DNA of 64,000 nt from Obrimoposthia wandeli (lineage: Eukaryota). Positions 5,938-38,342 of this stretch are shown piece after piece; the stretch's first letter is position 1; each line of letters starts with the position of its first letter. The notes beneath the pieces are model-generated. The model made no database searches. It was not told the DNA's origin and saw only the letters and a program-made list of their open reading frames with translations. The position numbers were made by a program, and so were the translations under genes. Where the stretch lies: positions 124,001 through 188,000 of the forward strand of contig CDROCS010000669.1 of assembly GCA_977020255.1 (NCBI GenBank). Direction: 5' to 3'.

Positions 5938-6051
5938 GTGGTTCGTCTCTCCTCCAAATCAATTAACGGTATTCGGTTCAAACGAACTTCGGGACCTCAA
6001 ATTAAGTTCAAGGAGATCTCCAAAAGAATCACAGAACGACTGCAATTATGA
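5938..6051 (+). CDS. MARK: Last coding exon of the MARK/PAR-1-like gene (end of KA1 domain)
   Basis: After acceptor tttcgcag (ends 5937) it reads VVRLSSKSINGIRFKRTSGPQIKFKEISKRITERLQL*, matching MARK VCKLPRLSLNGVRFKRISG...ELKL*. The phase-0 join to 4389 is in frame. Not present in the ORF track. Confidence 0.88.
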   Translation: MVRLSSKSINGIRFKRTSGPQIKFKEISKRITERLQL

Positions 6052-8399: not shown

Positions 8400-9110
8400 T
8401 ACGAAATGAAAAGCTCTAATTTTAAATTATACCGATTTAACCTATTGCATTCAATATGGCTTATTTTAACCCTTATGGAAATATCAAAAGATATCAATTA
8501 TATTTGCAAAAAACATTAATTATGAGGTTCATTTTGAAAAGAAAATTATTATAAAAATTATTAGAAACTGATGCAAACATTGGAAGAAAGATCAGTGGCA
8601 AAAACAATTTGTTACAGTTCTAGAAGCATTTTATTTATAATGAAAATGGAGGAATCTTTATTTCTAATAACTTTATTTATCAGAAAATGTTTTGTTAACA
8701 GTATATAAATGTAAAACATCTAAGAAAAGATTTTTAATGTCGAGACAATGCACAAGAATCCAGCTATCGATTGTAACAGTCCAAATGAAAACCCTCATTT
8801 AATGACATTTTTATCAAAATAAAATGGGAGTATATATTCTGTATAATGCGTTACATTTATATTCAACAAAATCTATAACACGTCGAGGGTATGTATGTGT
8901 TTATGATATGTCTGATAAGGCTGCCTTAAATTCTCGCATATTATTCAATTTAGTTGTTGGTACAAACATCACTACTAATTCATGCAGTATTTCTATCAAA
9001 ATAACTACCTTCAATACTTAGTAATTTATTTTCCAATGAAAGTATTGTGAATATCAGGACTGTAGCAGTAAAATGTCACATCTTGGAATACATTTTATTG
9101 TGACAACAAT
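8400..9110 (+). pseudogene. Highly decayed piggyBac-like transposase fragment
   Basis: Frameshifted pieces TMH...NPHLMTF..NKMGVYIL and YSTKSITRRGYVCVYDMSDKAALNSRILF resemble piggyBac STMH..KPE..FYN.TKGGVD.LD and Y+TK..TRRWP..VFYN+LD+A.+N..IL. A Cys-containing tail follows. No TIR or TSD found. Confidence 0.55.
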
Positions 9111-10199
9111 ATTAAAAAGGCGTTTCAAGTGTACTAAGTATAAATACATTTATTTTTACATTATTTATTATTTGTATCTATGGGTCAAATTGTGGATGTA
9201 TGTGTTATGATTAAATAATGGATATGCTAGTGGGAAATAACACTAATTAATTCTTTGAAAAACTCTTAGCAGCATTTATCAGTATATTTTTATTTTTTGC
9301 AAAAACGAATAACAAGTTGACTTTTATAAAGTATTTCCAAACATTTGTATGTCAAATGAAATCCCAATATATACGTGTAAGTCTTCTCTAGCAAGCCAGC
9401 AAATGTCACCAAAAGTTAAGAGTCCAGGATTTGTTTTTAATACAAGACAATGCTTCCTAATGCACAAGCCAGGTCAGATATTCAGCGATTATCAAGTCTG
9501 GCTTCAAGTTATTATCGTGCGCATAATATTCATAATTTTAATAGGTCACTTAGTAACTTCACAATATGTTGTGTGTTCAGTTCCAAAGGAAAGTTAAATT
9601 TAAATAATAAGTAAAATGGGCTATATTTATGGACATTGCCAAGGACATTTTAAGAACCATAAATTAAATTAAAAATAAAAAGTGTTTCTAGTTAACTTTT
9701 AATTATTCAACTAAGGTTATCTCTAGAAACGATTATTAATAGAGTCAACTGAGCTGCAGAAAAACAGAACGGTGGATTGGATAACATTTAATGGCAGAGC
9801 TGCAGTGTGTGAGTCATACAAGCAACAAGAGTCACCTAAGCCTGACTAAGCAATATTGTTTGTCAGCATTGCTGAGCCACATTAGTCAGAGTCAGTATCA
9901 TCAACAGGAATTTCATTGCGTTGAAGACATTTCTGACACCAGCCAATCATACGCCAGCGAGAAGAAGTTATAAAAAGAATTTGAAAACCGTAAAAAGATT
10001 ATAAGTTAAAGAAATTTACAAATATATCAATATAACTCGAACCATCGAATCACAAGTATAACGAGTAAGCATCGTATATCACAAGTATAGGCAGCCATCG
10101 AACACTATCGAAAACGGACTCCGAAAACAACAAGGATTTGATCAATCAGGCTCTCACCACATTTGGAAAATCATAATAAATAACAAACTAACACTAAAC

Positions 10200-11060
10200 A
10201 CAGAAACGTGTTCAGGCAGCATGTAAAAAATAAACTTTCTAGGATATACTTTGTCCATATATGGCATCAATCTTAATGTGACAAAACTGAAAACCATCTC
10301 AGAAATCTACCCACCACAAACATTGAAACAATTACGCATATTTTTTGGAAAAATCATTAAACGAGTACATAAAAACGCAAAAACTAAATTCAACAATTAA
10401 CAACTCCAAGATTTTAACAATGTAAATGAAGCACTTAAAACTGCCACTACTTTAACAAGCCCAACCAACAATGCGAAGGTAACTCTAACTACTGGCGCAT
10501 CCAACTTAACAGGAGCCGTATTGAATGAGATTATCAACAAACATAATTACCATTAGCTTTCTTCTCCAAAAAATTTAAGACTAATCAAACTAAATATTCA
10601 ACAAACAACAACGAAGTACTAGGAATATACCGCGCCATCAAACACTTCGAACAACAACAAATCGACAAAACATTCATCACATACACATATGATAAACCAT
10701 TAATACACACATTGCACATGAAAAATCCTACACCACGAAAAATAAAGACAAATAAATTACATGTCACAATTCCACACAGACATCAAGTTCATTCCAAACT
10801 TTACAATTATAATCACTGACACATTATCCAGACCATCTGACATAGACCAAACAAACACTACCAACCCTATAGATAACTTTTTTGAACCAAACAAACTCAT
10901 CAGCAAACAAAACTGACATGAATTCACACTCACGATACATACCCTTTCACTATGTACAACAACATATGGCATGATACTACAATCACATGTCTCACAAGAA
11001 TCATACTACTGCGAGAGTTACAAAGATATTAATAAATATACGAAATGCGATTACAACACA
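10200..11060 (+). mobile_element. Decayed Ty3/gypsy pol: RT C-terminus, RNase H and start of integrase
   Basis: KINFLGYTLS..GI...PPQTLKQLRIFFG; TTGASNLTGAVL...LAFFSKK...YSTNNNEVLGIYRAIKHF...TYDKPL fit the gypsy RT/RNase H consensus. Confidence 0.85.
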
Positions 11061-11476
11061 GTGATGGAAATATAAGAGGCGGTGTTTGGGTTAGGGAAGC
11101 AATAAGCGTATGAAACTCTAGTAGGTGGATCTGTCCGGTCTAATCCAACCCCAACCGTGCCTGTGTGTGGAGTTAAATTCCATGCATGTGTGTGTGGAAT
11201 GAAATTTCACGCATGTATGTGGAGCGAAATCTTGTGTATGTGTGTCCAGTCTACTCCCTCACCCTCTTGGGGAGGAATATCCCCCCTCATTTTTTTGTGT
11301 GTTACTTGGAGTGAAATTTCATGCATTGTGCATGAATTTCACATCCAATCTCAAAAGTGATTAAAGAAATCCACACGAATCCATCTCGACCCCATCGACT
11401 TATCTATTTCAGATAATACTTAGATATGAATATATGACTACTATATGTTAGAAGGATATCTAATAACAGATTTTAG

Positions 11477-12051
11477 ATGAATAAATTACTACATTGCAAG
11501 GACAAAATATGTCAAATAGATTTATATATTTTATTGAAGAAAATACAAGACGAAAAAATTTATTTCAATACATTTGTTGGGGTTTTTAAATGAAACCGTT
11601 AGATCCTCGTATGGAGGCCCCCAACGTGAGTTCTTTAGCGTTAAGATATACATATGGATGTGGCCTACCTATTCTTTCTTAAATTAGTTCTTAGTCTCGT
11701 GTTATGAGATGCAAAATACCTTTGCTTGAGTTCAAATTACCATTTGGAATTCGAATCACTGCAATACAATCAGTCACAATTTTAGCTAATCTTGGGAAAC
11801 AAATAAATCTTTATAAAATTGCAGAAAAAATGAAAGAAGAATGCATGTTTAAACTGTAAATTTTTCTTGCTCTCAGTTATTTGAAGTTTAAACCGCTATG
11901 TGTAAATATATTTTCCTTTGGTAAAGTTATGATATTGTGATTGAAAAGTTTTGATTATCCAGACATTGTTGATTCGATTTTAGAAAATATATCTTATTAC
12001 ATCTTGTTATCGTTTTTCTATAAACAAACCCGTTTAAACCTATTGTTTTAA
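11477..12051 (+). pseudogene. TBP-like (TATA-binding-protein fold) Polinton cargo gene, with stops
   Basis: 11700-11960 reads AIQSVTILANLGKQINLYKIAEKMKEECMFKL*IFLALSYLKFKPLCVNIFSFGKVMIL*LKS, which aligns by eye to the TBP repeat IQNIVA.A.L...I.L..+A...YEPE.FPGL.YR...P.....IF.SGKV.ITG.KS. Confidence 0.62.
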
Positions 12052-12258
12052 ATGAATAATACTATAAATACAGACAATGAAGGGGATCGTCTTGTCGACG
12101 AAATATTTTCTGGAAAAATCAAGGATAAACAAATTTTATCAGAATTAAAAAATAATGATATAACAAGAGATAACATTGAAACATTGGTTAAATCACACGT
12201 TATTCGAGTATTTAGAAATCGAACACAAATTAATAACATTATAACCAATATTCATTAA
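12052..12258 (+). CDS. Small Polinton ORF (68 aa) upstream of the ATPase, function unknown
   Basis: Intact ORF with ATG, conserved in the mirror arm (25254..25460). Confidence 0.5.
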   Translation: MNNTINTDNEGDRLVDEIFSGKIKDKQILSELKNNDITRDNIETLVKSHVIRVFRNRTQINNIITNIH

Positions 12259-12360
12259 TTTATTTTTGTATTTAATCTACAATAGCTCTAACATTATACA
12301 TATCAATAAAAAAAACTTATATGATACTATAAACAATATTAAAATGAAAGAGTATATGCA

Positions 12361-12996
12361 ATGGAGCTAAACAATAATGCTGTATTTCAAATAGTTGGTC
12401 CCCGTGGAAGTGGAAAGACACATTTCGTATGTAAATTGTTGCAAAAGGAATCTCTTTTCAATTCTAGTTTCAAAAATATTTATTGGCATCATGGTGGAGG
12501 AGGGGAAAGGGGTTTAACCAAAACAGAAGTTTGCAAGTTGAAAGGAATAACATTTATTGAAGGATTTCATGCGAATTGGTGTGAAATATTTAAAAAATAA
12601 GATGTAATAATAATTGAGGAAGCTAACAATAAATTGGACTTAAATAATTTATTTACAAAGATAGCAAGACATCGTGAAGTAACAGTTATATTTATCTCTC
12701 AAAATCTTTTTCACCAAGGAGGTCACCATAGAACAAGAAATCTTAATGTACATTAGTTAGTTTTATTTAAAAATCCTAGAGATCAAACAGTTGTAGATTT
12801 CGTGGCCAGACAGGCGTTTCCTCAAAATAAGAACTTCTAGTTGATTCATTCCATGATGCTGCTAAACAAGCACATGAGTATATATTTATTGACTTTACAC
12901 AAGCTTGTCCAGATGATTTACGTATTTTAACAGACATATTTAATTCTAAGGGAGTAACTGTTTATAAACAAATAGAGAACAATTATAAAAAATAAA
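12361..12996 (+). pseudogene. Polinton packaging ATPase (FtsK/HerA-like), frameshifted and with stops
   Basis: Walker A IVGPRGSGKT; downstream ARHREVTVIFISQNLFHQ...RTRNLN and LFKNPRDQ motifs typical of Polinton ATPases. Confidence 0.85.
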
Positions 12997-13172
12997 TTTA
13001 CAATGCCTTTTACGAAGTTGATAGTAAAACGTAAAGCAAAGCCTAAGAAATAATGAAAAGAATCATTAAGAAAAAAGAAGTGAAAAAATTAATCAAATCT
13101 GTAGTTAGAAATAAAAAAAACTATAATGGCTTCGAATATAAACAATACTCAAATTGAAGCTATTTTATTAAA

Positions 13173-13502
13173 ATGAAGAAAATACAAAGAAGCATACTCT
13201 ATTTTAAAGCTTTAGTCAAAGCCTCTTCTCATAAGAGAATGATTATTCTTAAAGCATTTCCATCCTTTGTTGTAGATGATTTATTGGAAGTTTTGTATAA
13301 TATAGTTTTGGGTCGAGTAAAAGTTGGAAATCGGAAAAATATATTAAAGAAATATAGAAAAACTCTTCTAGATATTGCTAATGTAAAAAGTAAAAAAAGG
13401 AAACGAAATATTATTCTTAAACATAATGGTGGTTTCATAGGGGCTGTTATTCCAGTTGTTGCTTTAATTATCAGTAGTATTATAGCTACAACACGATCAT
13501 AA
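13173..13502 (+). CDS. Conserved small basic Polinton protein (109 aa) located between ATPase and integrase
   Basis: Intact ORF ending in GGFIGAVIPVVALIISSII. Homologues at 24010..24339(-) and 60536-60874(-) in the same gene context. Confidence 0.65.
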   Translation: MKKIQRSILYFKALVKASSHKRMIILKAFPSFVVDDLLEVLYNIVLGRVKVGNRKNILKKYRKTLLDIANVKSKKRKRNIILKHNGGFIGAVIPVVALIISSIIATTRS

Positions 13503-13588
13503 ACAATTATTCATAAAATCAGCTAAAGATATGGGTGCTAACCCTAATTTACCTAAATTTAAATTTTCTTTCTATTCAAATTGCTGTA

Positions 13589-13951
13589 ATGGAGAAGATA
13601 TGGTTCAATCCAAAAAATTCAATTGGCTACACAGGAGTTTCAAAATTAGCAAAAAGAACAAAACAAAATTTAACAGAATTTTCTTTTTATTATTCTCCAG
13701 TTACTATTAGAAAAAACTCACACATTACGTTTACAAAAGAAGTTGATCATGAAAAAACAACTGAAGTTGTGATCGGGTTTGATAGTAAAGGACAATTCTA
13801 TTACAATTGTATAGATAAAGAAGTGAAAGTAATATTTGAAAATAACAAAGTCAGATTTAAAAATCGATTAAAATATCTTCAAGTTATTAAAATTAACTTT
13901 GAATCTAAAAAGAAGCTCTTCTATTCAGTTATGATAGTGAACAAACAGTAG
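13589..13951 (+). pseudogene. Deletion chimera: integrase N-terminus fused to internal penton sequence
   Basis: MEKIWFNPKNSIGYTGVSKLAK matches the element C integrase start MEKVWFDPSHPVGYTEISKLA; it then runs into TEFSFYY, matching element C penton AALTEFSFNY. Confidence 0.75.
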
Positions 13952-14049
13952 CTCGTAATAAACGGGATATAGTCTCATCTAAATCGGTTAGAAATGTTCC
14001 TGGTAGATTAGCAAGAGTATTTTTAGTTTAAACGAGACCAAAGATTGTA

Positions 14050-15015
14050 ATGGAACTGAAAATGTTTTCAAAAGATTATAAATTAGATAGTGAAGTGAAT
14101 TTCTGTAAATTAATACAGAAGGAATGTAGCGAATATTTAGATAAATGTGTATCATTAAAAAATGGTAAAATAACGTTTACAGTAAAGAGCAATATAAAAC
14201 GAGTTTTATTTGATGATAAACTCGCTAAAAACCTTGGTTTAAACATAAATACCTTTGAAACTCATACAATAAAAACCATAAAAGCTAAAAATAAGCCCAA
14301 ACCTTTAAATGCTGTTAATCATTTATATATTTATACTAATTTAATAGAACCAACGCTTGTAGGAGAACAGCGAGTTCCACTTTTGAGAACAATATGGATA
14401 TCTAAAAATGAAAATAAAGATGTGGACGCTGTCGGTATGTGTATAGATCAACCAATGTATCTTCCAGTTTCTCTCTTTTCTATAAACAATATTGAAGTAA
14501 ATATTAGAGATGATTCCAGACAACTAATAGATTTCACGTACGGGGCCAAGACAAGTTTAACAATACTTTTAATAAACAAAATGGCGAATCCAGCAATAAT
14601 TGAAGCTTATAGTCAAAGCCAACAAGGTGGAGAATTACTATATTTTGTTGGTAAACAATATGGATCTGGCTGGCTTAGAACATTAGGTAGATTTGCCTTT
14701 CCTCTTTTAAAGAGACTCGGGCGGTTTATATCAAAATTAGTAAAGGATTACCTTTCATCTAAAGACAATAAACTAAACAAATTTATATATAATGTTTTTT
14801 GTAAAATGGATAATAAAAATTGGAATAAATTATACATAAAATTATCTCCAGATTTAATGGAAGATTATAAAAAAAATTACTTTTCAGAAAATGATACTCC
14901 GGAAATTGTTGGAGATAAATTATGTAATTTAATTTCGAAATTTTTAGGTATGTTTACATTTAATATAATATATTTTAATATTCAAAGGAGAATTGACAAT
15001 ATATACCAATCTTAA
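14050..15015 (+). CDS. Chimeric 321-aa ORF: penton C-terminal half + start of the small pre-MCP protein + ORF across the inversion junction
   Basis: NHLYIYTNLIEP..VG...PLLRTI is penton-like; GGELLYFVGKQYGSGWLRTLGRFAFP is the pre-MCP core protein; the tail MDNKNWNKLYIKLSPDL is homologous to 39930-40140. Confidence 0.7.
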   Translation: MELKMFSKDYKLDSEVNFCKLIQKECSEYLDKCVSLKNGKITFTVKSNIKRVLFDDKLAKNLGLNINTFETHTIKTIKAKNKPKPLNAVNHLYIYTNLIEPTLVGEQRVPLLRTIWISKNENKDVDAVGMCIDQPMYLPVSLFSINNIEVNIRDDSRQLIDFTYGAKTSLTILLINKMANPAIIEAYSQSQQGGELLYFVGKQYGSGWLRTLGRFAFPLLKRLGRFISKLVKDYLSSKDNKLNKFIYNVFCKMDNKNWNKLYIKLSPDLMEDYKKNYFSENDTPEIVGDKLCNLISKFLGMFTFNIIYFNIQRRIDNIYQS

Positions 15016-15237
15016 CATGAAAGACTGAATCCTGAGTACTTTGTTATTTTAATAAATTTTTGATTTATGATTTTTTATTCGTTATAAACAAAGGGATTTG
15101 CTACAAATTTGGGTAATTATGCAGGAATATATCATAGATTTTGAGGGTTTCGTTAACAAAAATGGTGATTATATTATAAATGAATTATGTATTATGGATT
15201 TTCATCCTTTGCATTTCATTTTTCATATATATATATC

Positions 15238-16638
15238 CAGTGGTGGGATTCAAGGGTTCGCACCGGTTCGCGCGAACCGGTTCCTAAAAATATAAAAGTT
15301 CGCAGAACCGCCTGAACCGGTTCCTGGACTACCTTCTTCGACTGAAACGTACATAATCATCTGGATAAAAAAGATATAATTTTTTAATTCGTTGATTGAA
15401 CGCATTATTTATTCTTATTTATTCTTATATTAATATTAATGGGAAAGTCAAAATTTCAAAGATATTTCACCAGTCAAATAAGAACCAAATGGAACTTTTC
15501 AAAATTTCCGAACAACTTGGAATAGAAATTCTAAAAATTGGTAGAGTTTTAGGACCGAGATGGGCTGCTTGCAGTCTTAGATCAACAGTTGCAGTATGGC
15601 GTGCTTACCCAGCATTATTTGATTATTTTAGTAGCAAAGAAAAGTTCACAGGAATGGCCAAGCGTTTTGCAAACAGATATTTCCTTGAGGATTTAGCTTT
15701 AATGATAGATATATTAAAGGAAATATCATTACTTTCAAATGCTCTACAATGTAGAAATTTAAATTTGCCACGAGCCGAAAAGTTAATAAAAAGGTCAATC
15801 AAGGCGCTAGAAATGATGAAAGAAATGAAAGGTTCTTATGAAACAAAAATTGACGAGACTGTTGCTTCTGATGCATTTCTTCATATTAAGTTTGTTCAAA
15901 ATAAGAAATATATTAACCTTCCTCGCCAAAGCCTGTTAGATTCTATTATAAAAAATATGAAACTAAGATTGATGGATTCTGATGAAATAAAAGCAAGCAA
16001 AAACTCCAAAGAAATTGATAACAAAATTCACTGTTTAGTAAACATCGTTAGCCCTGAATCATGGGATATTGATGAAGTTGTTGTACCGTGGAAACAAGCT
16101 GAAGAAAAATTACCCGGATTCTATAAGCAGTTTCACCATAAAATATGCGTTAACGATTTCCGTGACTATGTAGAAAATGTTATAGAAAACCGTCCCAATC
16201 AAGATGTTCCTTCTACAATACAAAAAGCAAAAAATATTATTAATACAATTGCTTTGAGTTCTGCTGAAGCGGAACGCGGATTTTCAGTTATGAATGTGAT
16301 ATATAGCGATAAAAGGAATCGTCTTGAAGTTCAAAATGTCGCAAATCTTATGGTAATAAAGTTAATTGGTCTTCCTCTTAATTTATGGGATTCTATGGAT
16401 TCTGTTAAAACGTGGCTAAGAAAGCACCACACAGCTGATGATAAAAGAGTGAAGCATTCATCTAATAGTTCTTATAATTCTAATGAATTATCAATCTGGA
16501 AATATTTGGAATATGATGGTAAATAAAATGATTAATTGGACTTGTTTATTATTAACCACACACGGAAAAATTGATTTAATTCCACATCAACCGGTAAATG
16601 AGCGAACCGGTTGCTAAACAGTTTGAATCCCACCACTG
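15238..16638 (+). mobile_element. Internally deleted hAT DNA transposon (1401 bp)
   Basis: 16-bp TIR CAGTGGTGGGATTCAA / TTGAATCCCACCACTG, 8-bp TSD TATATATC (15230-15237 and 16639-16646), and subterminal GAACCGGTT repeats. Confidence 0.95.
15396..16526 (+). CDS. C-terminal half of a hAT transposase (ZNF862-like), N-terminally truncated
   Basis: TRW-equivalent GPRWAACSLRS and hAT dimerisation motif TIALSSAEAERGFSVMN...RNRL. The first ~30 residues of the ORF are probably not coding. Confidence 0.85.
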   Translation: MNALFILIYSYININGKVKISKIFHQSNKNQMELFKISEQLGIEILKIGRVLGPRWAACSLRSTVAVWRAYPALFDYFSSKEKFTGMAKRFANRYFLEDLALMIDILKEISLLSNALQCRNLNLPRAEKLIKRSIKALEMMKEMKGSYETKIDETVASDAFLHIKFVQNKKYINLPRQSLLDSIIKNMKLRLMDSDEIKASKNSKEIDNKIHCLVNIVSPESWDIDEVVVPWKQAEEKLPGFYKQFHHKICVNDFRDYVENVIENRPNQDVPSTIQKAKNIINTIALSSAEAERGFSVMNVIYSDKRNRLEVQNVANLMVIKLIGLPLNLWDSMDSVKTWLRKHHTADDKRVKHSSNSSYNSNELSIWKYLEYDGK

Positions 16639-17228
16639 TATATATCCCATTTAGAAGTTTAGATTATAAAAAAAATTATTAATTTATATCTAACTAATTA
16701 TTTTCATTTATTAAAATAGAAAGAAGGACATAAGGCTTTTTGTGAAATATGTATTTTCGATAAAATAAAATCTAATTTTGATATTGAAAATAGAATTTTT
16801 TATGTTTTAGATGGAATGGACGGCAAAAAGTATAAGACTTAAAAAAAAAATTTTCCTAAATTGAGGTTAAAAACTTTAAATGTTTCACGCGATCATCTAT
16901 TAAAAATTCCACGAAATATTTGCTGTCCATATCGTGATCATGGTGACCATTGCGCATATAAAAAATGTTTAAGTCTTTCTTATTATTACTTGACATGTAG
17001 ATAAACAATTATTCTAATTCATAATTTACAAAATTTTCATCAAATTACAAATAAGCCTTTTAATTGGAGGAATAAAAAAATAATAATATCAACCAATAAC
17101 AGATAAACAATCCTTCTCAATAAAATTCAAAATTTTCATCCAATAAGAAATGAGCATGTGTGCATAAATTTTAGTATATAAGCAAACACTTTCTTCATTT
17201 AAATCCCCGACTATTTGAAATAATGACT

Positions 17229-20200
17229 ATGATAAGAATCTATACTTATTATTTCATTATTAATATTTATTATTTCAGATTACATGTATCCTGTTTCCAG
17301 CATATTGTGGTGCTTCGGCTCCACATGGAAGAGAGTCCTGCATAGAGATAATGTCCGCCTACTATCGGACAAAGTCTCATGGGCTTCAATTCTTCATCTG
17401 CCCCTTCTGCAGAACAATGGAGGAGAAGGAGTTTCGAAACTTCTTCGGTGAACATCGAGATCATCTATCCTGTTTCACGGCCAACAACAAGAAGAGGGAT
17501 ATCGTGCAATTGGTGTGCGATTCACAGGCCGCACTTGCTCCAATTCCAGTTGCAATCGTTCAACTCGTTTACAGTCCTGCGATTGGTCTCCCGTCTCCTG
17601 ATTCTGCCCCATTCACTCAAATGACTAACAATGAGTGGATGAACGACATCTCCGAAGAAGATTTTGAGATGGAGCAGTGGAGCAACAACAGCTAGTTTGA
17701 GACCACCGAGGAATCTGATTTCGTCGAGTTAACGGACGACAGCTTGATGGATTCCATCAATGAAGAGGACTTCCAACCAGCTACAGTTGGATTGGCTTCA
17801 TTAGGTACTTTTTTATTATTTTTTATTATTTTTTAAAATTGTAATTATATATATTTTATATTTTATTTTTTATTCAGGAAATTCCGTGATACAGCCGTCG
17901 TCCACTACGACAGCTATGCCTCCCCCATCGCGAGAGCCTACATCGATGTTTGCACGCCTTAGAGGTAATAATTAAAAATATATATATTTATTTTTTAATA
18001 TATTTATTTCAGCAGCATCATCCTCTACAACAGCAGCTTCTTCGTCGGCAATGTCGGTTACTACTCCAAATGCAGCATCTACAACTGCGGCAGTACTTAC
18101 TACAGCAGCATCTCCTACAGCAGCATCTACTACAGCAGAATCTACTACATCAGCTGCGATTGCCTCAATATCGGCAGCATCACCAATATCAGCACCTTCA
18201 ACCTCAGCTGCGTTTGTGTCAACTGTTAATATAAATAGTTGTCTTCCCGTTCAATTAGGGGGAGGTTTGTCAGCGACTGTAGGAAGAAAGAGGCAAAGCC
18301 AATTTCTTAATAAGGTCCCACCAAAAAAACGTAGAGAAAATGGTGCTACTATAGAGTATCACGTAAATAATAAATATGTTATAGTTAAGGTGCCATTAGG
18401 AAATGAAATTTTAAGAAACGTAGTTGTAGATTCAAATATTGAAAATCTTTTAAAGTCAGAAGTGACTAAATTAGGACAGGCTAAGGTTCAATTTTGCTCA
18501 ACAGTTCAGTTTAAAAATGTCAATGAGGAGACTAAAACTTGGGTAATTTCACATAAAGCAACTGTTTTCTATGATAATTTTGTAACTGAATTGGAAGAAA
18601 CCTAGATGAAAAAATTGCTAATTATAGCGAGTTAAGTAGTGGCTGGAATCTAGTTAGAATTCACGATGTTAGCTTTGTTTTAATAAAGTTCACTGATATG
18701 ATATATCTTTCGGGGAGTTCATACATTCCTTCACCTAGATCTCTTTAACTTTCACGTTCCATTGTTAACGTATAAAACAGTGATAACCTTTGCTTTCTGT
18801 ATAGCGTATTGGCCATACTCAAAAGGGATGTAATTACTGAGCATAGAGAGCGTGTCAGTAAATATACCCCGTTTTTAAATGAATTGCAGTATCATGGAAT
18901 AGATTTTCCTGTTAAATTAACTGCGATATCAAGATTTGAACATCTTAATAACTTGAGTATTAATGTATTTAAATACAATACTGATATCCCAGTTAATGTA
19001 ACAGATGAAGAAAATTTTAAAAATCCTTTTGTAGATGTAATTTATAGGAGAAAAAATGAGGGGACTCAGATCAACTTAATTTTTCTCTAACATAATAAAA
19101 ATACCATTATGCTGCAATTCCCAGTTTAGATCGTCTTTTAAATTTAGATAATGGAGCCTTACCGGTTAGGATAAGGTGTAAGTGGTGTCATAGATGTTTA
19201 TATGGATTCTGATCCGAGCTCTCTTACAGCAAACATCTGACATTATGTTCACTGAATCCTGATGACAATATGCTATACAGCATGCCTAAGGATAAGGATT
19301 TAAAATTCAGGGATTGGGCAAAATGCATACCCGTGGAATTCAGGGTGTATGCAGGTTTTGAGTCAATTCTAGCATTGCACGACCAGTATGAGAGTATTCA
19401 CTTACCGGCTTCGGCAGGACTATTATTCTTAGGCCTTAATATTACACAGTATCATAAATTTTCCGGTACAAATTGTATTTTAGATTTTATGTTAAAATTA
19501 GAAGAATTAGGAACCAATATTGTCAAACCGTGGTATGATCTTAATGCTCATCAAGCAATGATCATGACAGGCATAGACTGGGTTAATTTTAATTCTAGCA
19601 GATCATGTTATTTGTGTGGTACCCAGTCTAAGTTAGTCAGAGATCACGATCATGTTACGGGGCGATAGTTGGGAATAGCGTGCAACCTCTGAAACCTTGG
19701 CGGTCGACTCCTTAAAATACCCCGCATTCCCATAGTGTTTCATAACCTCAAAGGACATGATTTGCATCATACACTTAAATACGCGTTGGATACATTAAGC
19801 TCTTGGGAAATTTCATGTAAACCTCAAACTTCAGAGAAATATTTATCTTTAACTGCATATACTGAATTCTGTAGTTTAAGATTCATAGATTCTCTGCAGT
19901 TTTTGAGCGGGTCTTTAAAAAATTGACTTAATAATCCCTTCCAATGTGCATGATAAATTAGATGATCTTTCAGTAGCGCCTGTTCATCAATGCCCACATA
20001 ATTCAAAGGTTAAGAAATTATTGTTAACACATGAAGACAAGTTGAATTATGTTGTGCATTGGTGGCTTCTTCAATTCTACTTACAGTTGGGAGCGAAAGT
20101 TACTCGTATTCATCGTGCTATAAGCTTCAGTCAAAACTGTGTGTTTAAAGATTATATTGAGAAGAATTCTAGAAAACGTAATTTGGCCACTAGCAAATTC

Positions 20201-20987
20201 GATCGGGATTTTTACAAGTTAAAAAGTAATAGTCTCTTTGGAAAAGCTGTAGAGGACTTGCGGAAACGTATTTGTCTACGGTTTTGCAATGATGAGTGTA
20301 AACTAATAACATATACTAGCAAGTACAACTTCAAGCGTAGTTTTACAATTGCAGATGACTTGGTAGCAGTGTTATTAGGAAAACAGAGTATTTGTTTCGA
20401 TCGACCGAGTTATATAGGTTAAACGGTTTTAGACATTTCTAAACTCAGAATATACGAGCTTCAATACATAGAATTAGAAAAATATCGACAAGAATTCAAT
20501 TGTGAGATCAAAATCGCAGCTGGGGACACTGACTCTTTCTTTTTAGAATGTAAAAATGTTAGTTTAAATAATCAATTATTACCGGCAATGTTTAGGGACA
20601 ACTTACTAGATACCCATAAATATCCCGCTAACCATCCTCTACACTCAATGAGTTTAAAGGATATTATCGGGAAATTTAAGTATGAAAGCTAGGGACAGGT
20701 TTCGTATGATGATTTTATTTTCCTACGCCCTAAATGCTACAGTTTACATGCATCTAATAATACATGTTCAATGAGAGCAAAGGGTGTGGGAAGAAACAAT
20801 CTTACATATGAGGCATACCGGAAAGTTTATGATACTGGGTGTATTGAAAGCTTTGAGCAAACAAAGATTTATTTCAAGAGCCCATCAACTGTATTCCCAT
20901 AAATCAACCAAAATAACTTTGAATAGTAATGACGACAAGCGCTTTTGGGTAGAAAAGAACGCTAGCCTGGCTTATGGACACTTCTGA
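17229..20987 (+). pseudogene. Intron-containing protein-primed DNA polymerase B of element A, with N-terminal Cys/His and S/T-rich module
   Basis: RVYAGFES, RDHDHVTG, FHNLKGHD, FIDSLQF, KLKSNSLFGK and AGDTDS motifs. Introns at 17232-17278, 17805-17877 and 17965-18012. Many stops, and a ~600-bp deletion near 19920 relative to element B. Confidence 0.92.
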
Positions 20988-21256
20988 ATTTAAGCGGTTT
21001 TGATTTTTTGATTTTTTTAGTTTAGTTTTTTAAAATTTTAGATCCTTATGGCACCTTGACTCTAACATTTTGTTATTTCAATACATTTTTTAGGATGGAC
21101 CTTATCTTTGCTGACATATCTCATTGTGATGTTGTGATTAATAAATGTATTAAAAAAAATTCGTCTTATGTCTTTTATTATTTTACCCTTATATTTTTAA
21201 GGGATTTAAAAAAAAATTCAAAATAAAACATTAAAAATATTTATTTTTATAACACA

Positions 21257-21636
21257 CTAGTCGTTTTGCAACGATAACCATAAAATACATAAATGTCCAC
21301 AGTTTCTCGTCGCATGATCCTGATATTGTATCTTGTTGTAAAATACTCTTCTTCGTCCTTTTTGAATAGTCGAAACAAGTTTGTGTGGATAATACATTGC
21401 AAATGGATCAAATACATGTATTGTCCACTCTCTAACATAAATAGCTATCCAATGTTCTCCTGGTAAATTCGAAGTATGAGTATTGATAATGTAACCTCCA
21501 GATTGAAAAAATGGAATCATATCAATAGGATAAACTCCATTGAGTTTATCACCCAGGACCTTCTCTGCTGATTCTTGTACTTGTACTGAACTAAATAAAA
21601 ATTAATAAATATAAATTTAAAAATGTCTTACATCAT
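21257..21636 (-). CDS. Adenain-like cysteine protease of element A (ATG 21636, 41-bp intron 21591-21631)
   Basis: INTHTSNLPGEHWIAIY, VFDPF and YQD...NCGHLC give the His/Asp/Gln/Cys catalytic set. Splicing gives an in-frame MISVQVQES start. Confidence 0.88.
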
Positions 21637-21637
21637 T

Positions 21638-22571
21638 CTATAATATGACAGTTATGTTTTTATTGATTTGTATTTCCGAATCAAACACTCCGTAAATAAG
21701 CACCGTAGTAGGATGTGTTAAAGCTGCATTGAACTTAATTTCTAGACGTAAATTTCCATCCTTTGGTAGTTGGCATTGGTTTATATCAAAGTCTGGTGCC
21801 AAAACAAATGTGAAGAATGAAGGGCAGCTGCTTTTAAACTCAGTGAAAGAAATACCATTGTTTATATTTTTATCTAGTTGGCCCAAATTCCGAATAATAG
21901 ATTGCGTATATGCCAAAGCATAAGCGTTACCTTCGAAATCTGTTTTATATGTTTCGCGATAATCAGTATTTAGGTCTAGGTTTTAGAACGTCTGTGCTTA
22001 TCAAAGAAAAATTTCATTTATTACGCTTTAAACGAAGATGTACATTAACACCGAGAATTAAATATTTCGGTTGTTCAAAGAAATTCAATCTCAAAGACCC
22101 ACACATTTCGTAAGCTTTAGAACCTGTAATCCAATCTTTGCGAGTTGCAACTGTTTTATCATAACCAATGGTTGCCAAATTAGTATTTTGAGTATCAGTA
22201 CTATAATTCAAAAGACTTTCAATCAAAGCTTTATGAGCATAGGAAGAATTTCCACTTTCAATTTTGACATTATTAAGAGTAACAATGGCATCACTAAATA
22301 AAGAATTAAAGAGATAATTTACAGGTGTTACATCGGCATTTTCCTCTACATTAGTACCATCCTGATTTAATACTTTTATTTGAACATAAAGCAAAGTATC
22401 ATTCAAATCTAAATACTCGCTATTGGAACCATTAATATTAAATTCTAAATCGGTTAAAGTGGTTCCTGAAACTGAGTTAACTAGAAATATTTCTTCAAAG
22501 GAAGTATTATCTACTACTACTTGTGGAAGCGGTTTATCAAAAATACACAATTCAGTTTTGGCGCAACTCAT
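21638..22571 (-). pseudogene. Major capsid protein (double jelly-roll) of element A, with ~290-bp internal deletion
   Basis: MSCAKTELCIFDKPLPQ...LDLNDTLLYV...NYLFNSLFSD and FDINQCQ...GNLRLEIKF....L..P.TVLIY match Polinton MCP. The missing middle part is retained in element B (46046-46335). Confidence 0.88.
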
Positions 22572-22945
22572 TTTGCAAATATTGTTTCTTCAACTTTCTT
22601 ACGTTTGTTTATATTGATTTTTAGCTTCTTTTTACTTTTAAATCCACTACCTCCTTGGCTTTTATTTGATTTACGTTTTCTAATCAAATTAGCAACTTCA
22701 GGTAAAACATTATCAAGTTCATCAAGTGCATGCTTCTTAAAAGTTGGTATTAGTTTATTGTCCTTAGATGAAAGGTAATCCTTTACTAATTTTGATATAA
22801 ATCGCCCGAGTCTCTTTAAAATAGGAAAGGCAAATCTACCTAATGTTCTAAGCCAGCCAGATCCATATTGTTTACCAACAAAATATGGTAATTATCCACC
22901 TTGTTGGCTTTGACTATAAGCTTCAATTATTGCTGGATTCGCCAT
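22568..22945 (-). pseudogene. Small basic pre-MCP core-like protein of element A
   Basis: QQGG*...YFVGKQYGSGW...KKHALDELD...QGGSGFKSKKK; its stop overlaps the MCP ATG (ATGA). Confidence 0.65.
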
Positions 22946-23462
22946 TTTGTTTATTAAAAGTATTGTTAAACTTGTCTTGGCCCCGTACGTGAAATCTATT
23001 AGTTGTCCGGAATCATATCTAATATTTACTTCAATATTGTTTATAGAAAAGAGAGAAACTGGAAGATACATTGGTTGATCTATACACATACCGACAGCGT
23101 CCACATCTTTATTTTCATTTTTAGATATCCATATTGTTCTCAAAAGTGGAACTCGCTGTCCTCCTACAAGCGTTGGTTCTATTAAATTAGTATAAATATA
23201 TAAATGATTAACAGCATTTAAAAGTTTTGCCTTATATATAGCTTTTATGGTTTCAAAGGTATTTCTTTTTAAACCAAGGTTTTTAGCGAGTTTATCATCA
23301 AATAAAACTCGTATTATATTGCTCTTTACTGTAAACGTTATTTTACCATTTTTTTAATGTTACACATTTATCGAAATATTCACTACATTCCTTCTGTATT
23401 AGTTTACATAAATCCACTTCACTATCTATTTTATAATCTTTTGAAAACATTTTCAGTTCCAT
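22946..23462 (-). pseudogene. Penton (minor capsid) C-terminal half, right arm
   Basis: Mirror of 14050-14580 with a frameshift; LRTIWISK...PMYLPVS...IEVNIR.DSGQLI.F..GAKT. Confidence 0.8.
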
Positions 23463-23560
23463 TACAATCTTTGGTCTCGTTTAAACTAAAAATACTCTTG
23501 CTAATCTACCAGGAACATTTCTAACCGATTTAGATGAGACTATATCCCGTTTATTACGAG

Positions 23561-23923
23561 CTACTGTTTGTTCACTATCATAACTGAATAGAAGAGCTTA
23601 TTTTTAGATTCAAAGTTAATTTTAATAACTTGAAGATATTTTAATCGATTTTTAAATCTGACTTTGTTATTTTCAAATATTACTTTCACTTCTTTATCTA
23701 TACAATTGTAATAGAATTGTCCTTTACTATCAAACCCGATCACAACTTCAGTTGTTTTTTCATGATCAACTTCTTTTGTAAACGTAATGTGTGAGTTTTT
23801 TCTAATAGTAACTGGAGAATAATAAAAAGAAAATTCTGTTAAATTTTGTTTTGTTCTTTTTGCTAATTTTGAAACTCCTGTGTAGCCAATTGAATTTTTT
23901 GGATTGAACCATATCTTCTCCAT
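23561..23923 (-). pseudogene. Integrase/penton deletion chimera, right arm
   Basis: Mirror of 13589-13951. Confidence 0.75.
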
Positions 23924-24009
23924 TACAGCAATTTGAATAGAAAGAAAATTTAAATTTAGGTAAATTAGGGTTAGCACCCATATCTTTAGCTGATTTTATG
24001 AATAATTGT

Positions 24010-24339
24010 TTATGATCGTGTTGTAGCTATAATACTACTGATAATTAAAGCAACAACTGGAATAACAGCCCCTATGAAACCACCATTATGTTTAAGAATA
24101 ATATTTCGTTTCCTTTTTTTACTTTTTACATTAGCAATATCTAGAAGAGTTTTTCTATATTTCTTTAATATATTTTTCCGATTTCCAACTTTTACTCGAC
24201 CCAAAACTATATTATACAAAACTTCCAATAAATCATCTACAACAAAGGATGGAAATGCTTTAAGAATAATCATTCTCTTATGAGAAGAGGCTTTGACTAA
24301 AGCTTTAAAATAGAGTATGCTTCTTTGTATTTTCTTCAT
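24010..24339 (-). CDS. Conserved 109-aa Polinton protein, right arm
   Basis: Translation identical to 13173..13502. Confidence 0.65.
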   Translation of the reverse strand: MKKIQRSILYFKALVKASSHKRMIILKAFPSFVVDDLLEVLYNIVLGRVKVGNRKNILKKYRKTLLDIANVKSKKRKRNIILKHNGGFIGAVIPVVALIISSIIATTRS

Positions 24340-24515
24340 TTTAATAAAATAGCTTCAATTTGAGTATTGTTTATATTCGAAGCCATTTAAGTTTTTTTTA
24401 TTTCTAACTACAGATTTGATTAATTTTTTCACTTCTTTTTTCTTAATGATTCTTTTCATTATTTCTTAGGCTTTGCTTTACGTTTTACTATCAACTTCGT
24501 AAAAGGCATTGTAAA

Positions 24516-25151
24516 TTTATTTTTTATAATTGTTCTCTATTTGTTTATAAACAGTTACTCCCTTAGAATTAAATATGTCTGTTAAAATACGTAAATCATC
24601 TGGACAAGCTTGTGTAAAGTCAATAAATATATACTCATGTGCTTGTTTAGCAGCATCATGGAATGAATCAACTAGAAGTTCTTATTTTGAGGAAACGCCT
24701 GTCTGGCCACGAAATCTACAACTGTTTGATCTCTAGGATTTTTAAATAAAACTAACTAATGTACATTAAGATTTCTTGTTCTATGGTGACCTCCTTGGTG
24801 AAAAAGATTTTGAGAGATAAATATAACTGTTACTTCACGATGTCTTGCTATCTTTGTAAATAAATTATTTAAGTCCAATTTATTGTTAGCTTCCTCAATT
24901 ATTATTACATCTTATTTTTTAAATATTTCACACCAATTCGCATGAAATCCTTCAATAAATGTTATTCCTTTCAACTTGCAAACTTCTGTTTTGGTTAAAC
25001 CCCTTTCCCCTCCTCCACCATGATGCCAATAAATATTTTTGAAACTAGAATTGAAAAGAGATTCCTTTTGCAACAATTTACATACGAAATGTGTCTTTCC
25101 ACTTCCACTGGGACCAACTATTTGAAATACAGCATTATTGTTTAGCTCCAT
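24516..25151 (-). pseudogene. Packaging ATPase, right arm
   Basis: Walker A IVGPSGSGKT; same disruptions as the left copy. Confidence 0.85.
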
Positions 25152-25253
25152 TGCATACACTCTTTCATTTTAATATTGTTTATAGTATCATATAAGTTTT
25201 TTTTATTGATATGTATAATGTTAGAGCTATTGTAGATTAAATACAATAATTAA

Positions 25254-25460
25254 TTAATGAATATTGGTTATAATTTTATTAATTTGTGTTCGATTTCTAA
25301 ATACTCGAATAACGTGTGATTTAACCAATGTTTCAATGTTATCTCTTGTTATATCATTATTTTTTAATTCTGATAAAATTTGTTTATCCTTGATTTTTCC
25401 AGAAAATATTTCGTCGACAAGACGATCCCCTTCATTGTCTGTATTTATAGTATTATTCAT
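25254..25460 (-). CDS. Small 68-aa Polinton ORF, right arm
   Basis: Mirror of 12052..12258 with one amino-acid difference. Confidence 0.5.
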   Translation of the reverse strand: MNNTINTDNEGDRLVDEIFSGKIKDKQILSELKNNDITRDNIETLVKSHVIRVFRNRTQINKIITNIH

Positions 25461-26035
25461 TTAAAACAATAGGTTTAAACGGGTTTGTTTATAGAAAAAC
25501 GATAACAAGATGTAATAAGATATATTTTCTAAAATCGAATCAACAATGTCTGGATAATCAAAACTTTTCAATCACAATATCATAACTTTACCAAAGGAAA
25601 ATATATTTACACATAGCGGTTTAAACTTCAAATAACTGAGAGCAAGAAAAATTTACAGTTTAGGCATGCATTCTTCTTTCATTTTTTCTGCAATTTTATA
25701 AAGATTTATTTGTTTCCCAAGATTAGCTGAAATTGTGACTGATTGTATTGCAGTGATTCGAATTCCAAATGGTAATTTGAACTCAAGCAAAGGTATTTTG
25801 CATCTCATAACACGAGACTAAGAACTAATTTAAGAAAGAATAGGTAGGCCACATCCATATGTATATCTTAACGCTAAAGAACTCACGTTGGGGGCCTCCA
25901 TACGAGGATCTAACGGTTTCATTTAAAAACCCCAACAAATGTATTGAAATAAATTTTTTCGTCTTGTATTTTCTTCAATAAAATATATAAATCTATTTGA
26001 CATATTTTGTCCTTGCAATGTAGTAATTTATTCAT
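25461..26035 (-). pseudogene. TBP-like cargo gene, right arm
   Basis: Mirror of 11477-12051. Confidence 0.62.
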
Positions 26036-26451
26036 CTAAAATATGTTATTAGATATCCTTCTAACATATAGTAGTCATATATTCATATCTAAGTATTATC
26101 TGAAATAGATAAGTCGATGGGGTCGAGATGGATTCGTGTGGATTTCTTTAATCACTTTTGAGATTGGATGTGAAATTCATGCACAATGCATGAAATTTCA
26201 CTCCAAGTAACACACAAAAAAATGAGGGGGGATATTCCTCCCCAAGAGGGTGAGGGAGTAGACTGGACACACATACACAAGATTTCGCTCCACATACATG
26301 CGTGAAATTTCATTCCACACACACATGCATGGAATTTAACTCCACACACAGGCACGGTTGGGGTTGGATTAGACCGGACAGATCCACCTACTAGAGTTTC
26401 ATACGCTTATTGCTTCCCTAACCCAAACACCGCCTCTTATATTTACATCAC

Positions 26452-27311
26452 TGTGTTGTAATCGCATTTCGTATATTTATTAATATCTTTGTAACTCTCG
26501 CAGTAGTATGATTCTTGTGAGACATGTGATTGTAGTATCATGCCATATGTTGTTGTACATAGTGAAAGGGTATGTATCGTGAGTGTGAATTCATGTCAGT
26601 TTTGTTTGCCGATGAGTTTGTTTGGTTCAAAAAAGTTATCTATAGGGTTGGTAGTGTTTGTTTGGTCTATGTCAGATGGTCTGGATAATGTGTCAGTGAT
26701 TATAATTGTAAAGTTTGGAATGAACTTGATGTCTGTGTGGAATTGTGACATGTAATTTATTTGTCTTTATTTTTCGTGGTGTAGGATTTTTCATGTGCAA
26801 TGTGTGTATTAATGGTTTATCATATGTGTATGTGATGAATGTTTTGTCGATTTGTTGTTGTTCGAAGTGTTTGATGGCGCGGTATATTCCTAGTACTTCG
26901 TGGTTGTTTGTTGAATACTTAGTTTGATTAGTCTTAAATTTTTTGAGAAGAAAGCTAATGGTAATTATGTTTGTTGATAATCTCATTCAATACGGCTCCT
27001 GTTAAGTTGGATGCGCCAGTAGTTAGAGTTACCTTCGCATTGTTGGTTGGGCTTGTTAAAGTAGTGGCAGTTTTAAGTGCTTCATTTACATTGTTAAAAT
27101 CTTGAAGTTGTTAATTGTTGAATTTAGTTTTTGCGTTTTTATGTACTCGTTTAATGATTTTTCCAAAAAATATGCGTAATTGTTTCAATGTTTGTGGTGG
27201 GTAGATTTCTGAGATGGTTTTCAGTTTTGTCACATTCGGATTGATGCCATATATGGACAAAGTATATCCTAGATAGTTTATTTTTTACATGCTGCCTGAA
27301 CATGTTTCTGT
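26452..27311 (-). mobile_element. Inverted copy of the gypsy RT/RNase H relic
   Basis: ORF 26693..26986 reads EVLGIYRAIKHF...DKPL; mirror of 10200-11060. Confidence 0.85.
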
Positions 27312-27446
27312 GTTTAGTGTTAGTTTGTTATTTATTATGATTTTCCAAATGTGGTGAGAGCCTGATTGATCAAATCCTTGTTGTTTTCGGAGTCCGTTTT
27401 CGATAGTGTTCGATGGCTGCCTATACTTGTGATATACGATGCTTAC

Positions 27447-27665
27447 GTAATAGTACTGAAAAAGTACGCGGACCTACTCAAAGTTCCAATGACGAAACCG
27501 AGACCCCAAGCAGCTACTGTTACTGCTACCGAGGACCAGCAGCATATTGAGACCCGGACCTACGTAAAGTAGAAGAGGCCCCTATGGGGCCTTTGAGAAA
27601 TTGATTGCATTCACATTAATAAATGTTTGATAAATAGATAAATAAATAAATAAATAAATAATTTT
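27447..27665 (+). mobile_element. Arm-specific 219-bp segment resembling a retroposon 3' end (stem-loop plus (TAAA)n tail)
   Basis: Absent from the left arm, where 46 bp (10019-10064) sit instead. Contains the hairpin GAGGCCCCTATGGGGCCTT followed by AATAAA and about seven TAAA-like repeats. Confidence 0.5.
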
Positions 27666-28195
27666 TAAATTTCTTTAACTTATAATCTTTTTACAGTTTT
27701 CAAATTCTTTTTATAACTTCTTCTCGCTGGCGTATGATTGGCTGGTTACAGAAATGTCTTCAACGCAATGAAATTCCTGTTGATGATACTGACTCTGACT
27801 AATGTGGCTCAGCAATGCTGACAAACAATATTGCTTAGTCAGGCTTAGGTGACTCTTGTTGCTTGTATGACTCACACACTGCAGCTCTGCCATTAAATGT
27901 TATCCAATCCACCGTTCTGTTTTTCTGCAGCTCAGTTGACTCTATTAATAATCGTTTCTAGAGATAACCTTAGTTGAATAATTAAAAGTTAACTAGAAAC
28001 ACTTTTTATTTTTAATTTAATTTATGGTTCTTAAAATGTCCTTGGCAATGTCCATAAATATAGCCCATTTTACTTTTATTTAAATTTAACTTTCCTTTGG
28101 AACTGAACACACAACATATTGTGAAGTTACTAAGTTTCCTATTAAAATTATGAATATTATGCGCACGATAATAACTTGAAGCCAGACTTGATAAT

Positions 28196-28550
28196 TCACA
28201 ACTGCATCATGGGTCTCAGAACACCCCTCACCTAGATGACAACAAAAGCCTCACACATCGAATATTCAAATCACACATATACAACAAACACACAAATGAA
28301 ACCCAAATCTATCACAAGCATACATAAAAATACACAAACATTACTCACTAGACCCAAAATACAAGGGTCCATACACCATCATCTGACACAACTCCAACAA
28401 TACAACGATCATCATTTGAAAATCACACACCCAAAGAAACACAAAACCATATCACAAATACACTACCACAAGACAGTCAAATTCCCCACCGAAACAATAC
28501 CGACAAACACTACTCATTCCATAACTCCGTTATCTTAGGGGAAAGTTATT
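28196..28550 (+). mobile_element. Gypsy integrase C-terminus (GPY/F) and probable polypurine tract
   Basis: IMGLRT (cf. VLLGLRT), PKYKGPYTII, then TTAGGGGAAAG. Same strand as the relic at 10200-11060. Confidence 0.7.
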
Positions 28551-38179: not shown

Positions 38180-38342
38180 AAATGAAATCAACAAGTACAA
38201 ACAAAAAGTATCAAAGTTCAAAGAAAAAATCAAAACAAATGAAATCAACAAATACAAACAAAAAGTATCAAAGTTCAAAGCAACAATCAAAACAAATGAA
38301 ATCAACAAATACAGACAAAAAGTATCAAAGTTCAAAGCAAGA
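38180..38342. repeat. 57-bp tandem repeat (about 3 units) inside pogo copy 1
   Basis: Unit AAATGAAATCAACAAATACAGACAAAAAGTATCAAAGTTCAAAGCAACAATCAAAAC, visible as the 19-aa repeat in ORF 38182..38424. Confidence 0.9.

Follow-up and report, generated by a model that had tools for sequence, protein, structure and literature searches.

A mirror duplication spanning one end of a decayed Polinton in Obrimoposthia wandeli, probably formed in one event with two template switches

RESULTS

A 5.3-kb mirror repeat at a dead Polinton

A 64-kb window of the Obrimoposthia wandeli genome contains a 5.3-kb mirror repeat that probably arose when a single episode of replication or repair switched template twice. 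The event likely duplicated one end of a Polinton that was already dead, together with its flank, and lost the other end. No function is indicated for the repeat.

The left arm (9488 to 14776, plus strand) is the reverse complement of the right arm (22750 to 28195, minus strand), as the preliminary description had it, with an overall identity of about 98.6% in the arm-to-arm alignment. BLAST of one arm against the other returned 4,723 bp at 98.6% and 540 bp at 98.5%. Relative to the AGTAGG termini at 11120 and 26392, the arms extend 1,632 bp outward and 3,657 bp inward, matching the earlier estimates of 1.6 and 3.6 kb. The single-copy spacer between them (14777 to 22749) carries the left interior of the element, a hAT transposon with an 8-bp target-site duplication (15238 to 16638, plus strand), a broken pPolB gene (plus strand; Pfam DNA_pol_B_2, E=5e-9), what we take to be a protease gene (minus strand), and a major capsid gene (minus strand), for which matches of 0.94 to 0.96 to Atlas capsid clusters provide a lead.

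Both arms carry a broken packaging-ATPase gene (12343 to 12916, plus strand) with a P-loop motif and 74% identity to a sister copy at 61025 to 61301, whose open reading frame matches Pox_A32 weakly. Downstream lie the start of a putative integrase gene (13517 to 13670, plus strand), interrupted by a deletion of ~1.07 kb common to both arms, and a piece of a minor capsid (penton-like) gene (14050 to 14580, plus strand; both arms). The latter matches Preplasmiviricota and Sputnik V18/19 clusters in the Atlas at 0.96 to 0.97, with a recognition of 2266, and hence is a lead only. The integrase and cysteine protease fragments gave no informative Pfam match, and these presumptive labels come from motifs and gene order. 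Together, pPolB, the packaging ATPase, and the major and minor capsid genes (the capsids as Atlas leads) make up the gene set of a Polinton/Maverick.

The right arm alone holds an insertion of 217 bp (27445 to 27661, plus strand), which replaces 37 bp of the left arm and derives from a young non-LTR-type retroelement, truncated on the 5' side so that only its 3' end with an (ATAA)n tail is present. Neither this insertion nor a 230-bp tract in which the arms are 93% alike (see below) appeared in the preliminary description.

Two junctions are new

The structure contains exactly two new junctions. At J1 (14774 to 14776), the left arm breaks off in its core-protein gene and gives way, through a 3-bp microhomology (TAA), to left-hand interior sequence of the same family. 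At J2 (28194 to 28195), the mirrored left flank meets another gypsy element through a 2-bp microhomology (AT). Microhomologies of 2 to 3 bp can also come from chance or end joining. Twenty-six family HSPs cross 22750 and none crosses 14776, in agreement with the proposal that the inner part is native on the right, and the sequence upstream of 14774 differs in all 10 family copies compared. A like count at 28195 gave no matches at the thresholds applied and is given no weight here. Beyond 14776, the sequence is colinear with element B at 78%, as noted earlier, and also with the left-hand interior of other copies in its own family, at 96 to 98% in 39 of 39 non-self matches. J1 lands ~3.5 kb inward from where the missing far end would be. 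It lies 3,657 bp from a terminus, and J2 lies more than 1.6 kb from one.

At the mirror position of J2, four loci of one repeat align over 9376 to 9508 at 73%, a weak match that reaches 21 bp past the junction; continuity at 9488 rests on this match and one read contig. To this extent, the outer part appears native on the left, and the view that each arm is a hybrid holds, but the gypsy argument offered for it does not. The left flank contains the RT end, RNase H, and integrase start of a decayed gypsy element of subfamily A (10167 to 11020, plus strand; Pfam RT_RNaseH, E=4.5e-10), mirrored at 26492 to 27344. The piece at 28196 to 28690 (plus strand) contains a gypsy integrase end and a motif that we take, from its sequence, to be GPY/F-like, and copy comparison places it in a separate, likewise decayed element of subfamily D. 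The left-flank piece is 79 to 82% identical to one set of gypsy copies and 63 to 68% to another, whereas the piece at 28196 is 66 to 73% identical to the first set and 89 to 92% to the second. These opposite profiles indicate that the two pieces derive from two elements, ruling out a single gypsy that resumes at 28196 across the Polinton. With gypsy continuity rejected, an early estimate of ~0.4 kb for the host deletion was dropped. On the deletion side, the 5' part of the subfamily D gypsy and the far Polinton end are absent.

One Polinton end accounts for both termini

Family comparison identifies the two putative termini as copies of one ATPase-side end, with ATPase-side subterminal sequence present at both. 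Copy 1 of the terminal inverted repeat (TIR) occupies 11120 to 11229 (plus strand) and copy 2 occupies 26283 to 26392 (minus strand), where the flank mirrors the left flank and there is no target-site duplication. Family copies start at the AGTAGG terminus, and none passes across it. No difference separates the arms over 11068 to 11468, which includes the TIR, whereas the two TIRs of one element align at only 81 to 89% in eight family elements, implying that the TIRs were overwritten too.

The far end of this Polinton, about 3.5 kb long in full-length family copies, is absent: the first 3,493 bp of a full-length copy have no match between 9 and 29 kb apart from the TIR. Its usual length is 3.3 to 3.7 kb in 5 of 14 measured copies, with a range of 0.7 to 5.7 kb. 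Family TIRs are about 100 bp long (alignments of 74 to 126 bp in all eight two-ended elements), and five of these eight elements have a 6-bp target-site duplication. An intact relative with TIRs as long as the arms, which the preliminary description had named as a refuting observation, was not present among these eight. A genuine long Polinton TIR is likewise ruled out, since the repeat extends beyond the element by 1.6 kb of host DNA and lacks a target-site duplication.

The arms share private changes but diverge unevenly

The ~1.07-kb deletion (at 13670 and 23842) is private to both arms, and the extra sequence is kept in three family copies. Over 11697 to 14080, where ~30 to 40 family copies are available per site, the arms share 55 rare bases versus 11 differences. 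The shared deletion and rare bases indicate that both arms come from one long-dead copy. By contrast, the adjacent 230 bp (14081 to 14310) hold 15 substitutions and two indels, with no rare base in common. In one arm, sequence of a different Polinton copy has likely replaced the original tract. A near-identical donor was not found, the best matches being 97% for the left version and at most 95% for the right; one of the locus sets used was chosen by its match to one arm and is partly circular, whereas the rare-base count used a wider set.

Outside the terminus the arms differ by 14 events in 1,589 bp versus 10 in 2,961 bp inside it (p=0.03), and the inner arm edge has eight events in 466 bp. 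To explain this unevenness, conversion between the arms, use of a homologue as template, or a two-step origin is needed. No step in divergence is seen at the TIR, within 11068 to 11468.

Read support

The four sequencing runs come from one sample, possibly the assembled one. The read-depth check suggested earlier gave a mixed outcome, with the arms at about twice the flank depth in two of the four runs (X3, flank contigs at 50.7 and 51.8 versus arm contigs at 91 to 95; X5, 3.3 to 3.9 versus 6.1 to 8.5) but a flat ~3 throughout in X4 and no flank coverage in X2. Position 9488 is precisely where read contigs start or branch, and right-arm bases are present in reads. The left flank has a single successor, one X3 contig covering 8752 to 9517. 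In the assembly each flank occurs once, and no ancestral allele turned up there or in the read contigs. An adjoining 3,054-bp contig at depth 50.7 should, if colinear, contain a KA1 kinase exon (Pfam E=3e-9). At J1, family copies swamp the read matches and the junction did not appear; no molecule spanning both arms was found among the short read contigs at the locus.

The structure is absent from 40 surveyed family loci

We surveyed 20 kb around 30 of 38 other ATPase matches, taken from 40 of 4,268 candidates scored, and around 10 of 39 other interior matches, from a search with 2,494 candidates. Inverted repeats were present at 11 of the 30 ATPase loci and 5 of the 10 interior loci. Nine of the 11 were mapped (two at 72 to 76% identity were left out) and five were extended; these are separate or nested Polinton pairs or other long-armed elements, none crossing a terminus into the flank. 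At locus C1277, a break 6 bp away from the position mirroring J1 suggested a second case, but terminus-like sequence at that junction leads us to read it as a nested insertion. The same structure was thus found at 0 of 40 loci, as expected of a one-off event.

DISCUSSION

Neither of the two new junctions in the structure is close to a TIR. A single continuous tract including the terminus appears to have been copied once. The ancestral order would have been flank, ATPase end, genes, far end, and flank. Synthesis may have halted in the core gene at 14776 and, at the 3-bp match, resumed on the opposite strand at a point within the element ~3.5 kb from its far end. Copying would then have run backward through the element, past its ATPase end and a further 1.6 kb into the flank, as far as 9488, before returning to the forward strand inside the different gypsy (28196) at the 2-bp match. 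The outcome would be a duplicated tract, an inverted spacer, and loss of the far terminus with some host DNA. Parsimony favors a single, presumably replicative, origin, and the 217-bp insertion and 230-bp patch are probably later changes, or else may come from a partner chromosome that served as template. In an isomer with the opposite spacer orientation both junctions would be identical, and the two forms are indistinguishable. The closeness of the copied inner length (3,657 bp) to that of the lost end (~3.5 kb) is treated as chance in this model.

The preliminary description had proposed that the TIRs seeded an expansion by template switching or gene conversion. A process of the template-switch type agrees with our reading, but growth guided by the TIRs is unlikely. 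In that scheme, the ~100-bp TIRs would pair and two conversion or fold-back events would extend the repeat outward and inward, or a panhandle would set where a single switch lands. One terminus does lie inside the copied tract and the other inside the lost tract, and the similar inner lengths and the greater divergence of the outer arm part are weak hints in its favor. No junction falls at a TIR, however, divergence has no step there, the right flank does not continue the left gypsy, and extended TIRs occur at none of the 40 family loci. Two events would also call for two rare microhomology joins where one event suffices, and with 17 kb of the 64-kb window matching one Polinton copy, breakpoints near termini are expected. 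There is only a slim chance that Polinton ends form a panhandle that steers long-range template switching, such that one end and its flank overwrite the other over a matched length. If that were true, Polintons would be a recurrent source of multi-kilobase host mirror duplications, and the hairpin loci could silence the family. Literature retrieved on Polinton/Maverick inverted duplication, inverted-repeat expansion, and the adenovirus panhandle did not describe TIR-seeded Polinton expansion.

We also give little credence to an assembly artefact, whether high-copy Polinton sequence bridged two haplotypes or loci that share the arm, or a chimera from fold-back amplification was assembled. J1 does lie within sequence that has thousands of relatives (2,494 candidates), the arm differences of 0.3 to 0.9% plus one insertion could be allelic, and the short read contigs over the locus include no spanning read. 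Yet the left flank has one successor and the arms twice the flank depth, both flanks are single-copy, and a chimera would give identical arms and low depth. A haplotype merge would require a hemizygous flank, whereas the contig at depth 50.7 should, if colinear, hold the kinase exon. Aberrant transposition by the Polinton integrase, resembling maize Ac alternative transposition with re-replication, is very improbable: although such products are described as holding transposon ends and flanking DNA in inverted form (bioRxiv 10.1101/2020.01.07.897926), neither new junction here joins a terminus to a new target, there is no target-site duplication, and the copy was heavily decayed before it was duplicated.

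The single event with two switches likely represents an ordinary copying or repair slip, a well-resolved example, in dead repeat DNA, of a known class of complex rearrangement. It also cautions that two matching Polinton "termini" can be a single terminus duplicated. Should terminus-spanning mirror duplications be enriched among the thousands of Polinton copies, TIR pairing would be tied to host rearrangement; the 40-locus survey gave no sign of such enrichment.

Comparison with known systems

The element resembles the Mavericks/Polintons outlined by Barreat and Katzourakis (2021, PMC8097293) in its pPolB, ATPase-like, and capsid genes and its AGT-type end; vertebrate Maverick TIRs are given there as 46 to 1,447 bp, versus ~75 to 130 bp in this family. 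Inverted duplication of a transposon end is also seen in Ac composite insertions and Mu killer (bioRxiv 10.1101/2020.01.07.897926), but those are transposase-initiated or are short-spaced hairpins that make siRNA, whereas here the spacer is 8 kb and the junctions are not termini.

MMBIR, for which Hastings et al. (2009, PMC2621351) give a microhomology range of 2 to 5 bp, and FoSTeS provide a closer likeness, given the 3 bp at J1, the 2 bp at J2, and the mixture of inverted duplication with deletion. In the DUP-INV-DUP cases described in PMC7702065, a second inverted switch restores orientation, as proposed here. The mechanism at our locus is suggested by its junctions alone, in contrast to those systems, and end joining with fill-in may instead have produced them.

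The structure is likely a dupINVdel of the four-point type 3-1-2-4. In the four-point model outlined by Loytynoja and Goldman (2017, PMC5453318), one switch and return, in the order 3-1-2-4 or its isomer 3-2-1-4, yields an inverted repeat and an inverted spacer from no prior repeat. That model acts at short range within one fork, whereas the reverse-copied tract here would be ~13 kb, or 5.3 kb in the isomer. In the dupINVdel class described by Collins et al. (2017, PMC5338099), two junctions produce an inverted segment with duplicated sequence on one side and lost sequence on the opposite side. Our locus has the same layout, with the inverted duplication at one end of the segment read as inverted. 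The human cases described there are larger in scale, whereas this one lies in a decayed Polinton, with an ancestral allele reconstructed from family copies.

One end of a decayed Polinton is present twice

The inverted duplication around the decayed Polinton consists of a left arm at 9488-14776 (+) and a right arm at 22750-28195 (-), limits set by base-level alignment. Self-comparison of the window recovers the arms as two blocks, 10065-14784 with 27446-22740 (4723 bp, 98.6% identity) and 9488-10027 with 28195-27658 (540 bp, 98.5%), separated by an insertion of 217 bp that is specific to the right arm (27445-27661) and replaces 37 bp of the left arm. This insertion derives from a young, (ATAA)n-tailed repeat, of which it holds the truncated 3' end, and it is 100% identical to many copies of that repeat. 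The same young retroelement occupies the same Polinton site in three of the five other copies viewed (loci L086, L087, and L088 of this assembly); it may have been carried along by a Polinton lineage or may reflect a site preference.

Each arm comprises 1632 bp of flank, holding a decayed gypsy RNase H, and 3657 bp inward from the Polinton terminus, holding an ATPase, an integrase start, a penton-like gene, and a core-gene start (the integrase and core gene labels are putative). This content matches only one end of a full-length 16.8-kb family copy; the opposite end, about 3.5 kb of different sequence, has no match in window positions 9 to 29 kb beyond the TIR. The two arms have the same deletion of about 1.07 kb, which is absent from three family copies, and across 11697-14080 the arms have 55 family-rare bases in common versus 11 differences. 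Because of the shared deletion and rare bases, the positions that the preliminary description took for two termini, 11120 and 26392, evidently both represent a single terminus, duplicated, of one long-dead element. No TSD was found for this Polinton. The terminal region (11120-11350) is only 70 to 77% like family termini, compared with about 93% for the interior, and may be of another subfamily origin.

Two junctions are new and two are native

Family HSPs cross 22750 in 26 cases and 14776 in none, and other sequence lies upstream of 14774 in all 10 family copies examined. The junction at 14774-14776 (J1) shows the microhomology TAA; at 28194-28195 (J2), the mirrored flank joins gypsy sequence with the microhomology AT. 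Position 9488 is spanned by one read contig and is crossed by the alignment of one repeat family (4 loci, 73%). The crossings at 22750 but not at 14776, the microhomologies, and the continuity at 9488 thus bear out the earlier proposal of two new and two native junctions. The accompanying claim that the left-flank gypsy resumes at 28196 fails. The left piece is 79 to 82% like 11 subfamily-A loci and 63 to 68% like six of seven subfamily-D loci (the remaining one gave no alignment), whereas the piece at 28196 is 89 to 92% like the seven subfamily-D loci and 66 to 73% like 8 of the 11 subfamily-A loci. Judged by these similarities, the right-flank gypsy belongs to a different element than the left.

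Host genes lie on either side, and the duplication cuts neither of them: an intronless EGF-domain ORF (29823-31136, -; 437 amino acids; presumably CRELD-like) and a KA1-domain kinase, which we take to be MARK-like and whose last exons lie at 4140-4390 and 5938-6051 (+). Polintons neighbouring the locus carry dual-specificity phosphatase genes as cargo at 61996-62445 (-; Pfam DSPc, E=9e-12) and 38679-38927 (+), 83% alike at the DNA level.

Read support

Four runs of one sample (X2 to X5), assembled as contigs, were compared with window positions 8600-22600. Read depth over the arms, named in the preliminary description as a check, was roughly doubled in two runs: in X3, flank contigs stand at 50.7 and 51.8 and arm contigs at 95, 94.9, and 90.7; in X5, the flank stands at 3.3 to 3.9 and the arm at 6.1 to 8.5. 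X4 shows no doubling (depth about 3 throughout), and X2 contigs do not reach the flank. One X3 arm contig begins exactly at 9488 and another covers 8752-9517. An X5 contig carries right-arm bases with 31 unmatched letters ahead of 9488, taken to be the putative J2. J1 was not discernible in reads within 8600-22600, among Polinton family contigs, and no read record spanning both arms was found among the contigs of the four runs. Each flank occurs only once in the assembly; the left one contains a KA1 kinase exon. A fold-back chimera is unlikely, as is a mis-join of haplotypes or loci; the locus looks like a real inverted duplication with deletion, a one-off in dead repeat DNA.

Inverted repeats elsewhere

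Candidate relatives of this Polinton number in the thousands in the surrounding assembly (1.35 Gb, animal). No inverted repeat spanning a terminus into the flank was found in 20-kb stretches at 30 hits to the ATPase and 10 to the left interior, these 40 loci being a small sample of the thousands of copies. A pair of ATPase-side Polinton ends at L129-L130 (G000:C2261) lie 15.4 kb apart and point toward one another. They match at 93% over 2.8 kb and show neither TSD nor mirrored flank; we read them as two separate copies. Inverted repeats at L111-L112, L121-L122, L037-L038, and L143-L144 (arms of about 1.5 to 4 kb, 94 to 99%) are other elements with no match to the Polinton reference, some inserted in Polintons. 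A second large inverted repeat in the window, 35509-38646 versus 56069-59303 (98.7% over 2835 bp), is ordinary: one pogo/Tc5-like DDE_1 transposon has inserted separately in two different Polintons, and each insertion has its own TIRs. In the core-protein gene, three unrelated breaks or insertions lie at most about 40 bp apart (L135-L136, G000:C1277 about 25040; window 22750; G000:C1158 at the match of window 22715), a possible hot spot or chance.

A single template switch and return is the favored origin

A single switch-and-return event probably explains the whole structure. Synthesis would depart at 14776, re-prime about 3.5 kb inward of the far end on the other strand, continue in reverse to 9488, and return to the forward strand at 28196. 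The preliminary description instead had the TIRs seed growth of the repeat outward and inward. At 3657 bp, the inner part of the copied tract comes close to the typical length of the lost end, as gauged from 14 measurable family copies (0.7 to 5.7 kb, five at 3.3 to 3.7 kb), the window element itself having lost several other pieces; yet TIR-guided growth requires two events with the same two nonhomologous joins, and we regard it as improbable. Aberrant transposition of the Ac type (bioRxiv 10.1101/2020.01.07.897926) predicts a terminus joined to a new target; none is observed here, and this origin is very improbable.

Uneven divergence between the arms speaks against a single event: 14 events fall in the 1589 bp outside the terminus, compared with 10 over 2961 bp on its inner side (p=0.03), and the inner edge has 8 in 466 bp. 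Across 14081-14310 the arms differ by 15 substitutions, 7 of them on family-polymorphic sites, and 2 indels, and share 0 rare bases where about 5 are expected (p=0.005). This pattern points to a patch from another Polinton copy, for which searches with each arm's version found no donor. The unevenness could stem from arm-to-arm conversion, a homologue as template, or two steps.

The locus is a fresh instance of a known rearrangement class. The proposed single event would be of the same class as dupINVdel (PMC5338099) and of the same form as the 3-1-2-4 four-point template switch (PMC5453318), a model stated there for short range; the microhomologies at J1 and J2 fit MMBIR (PMC2621351, PMC7702065).
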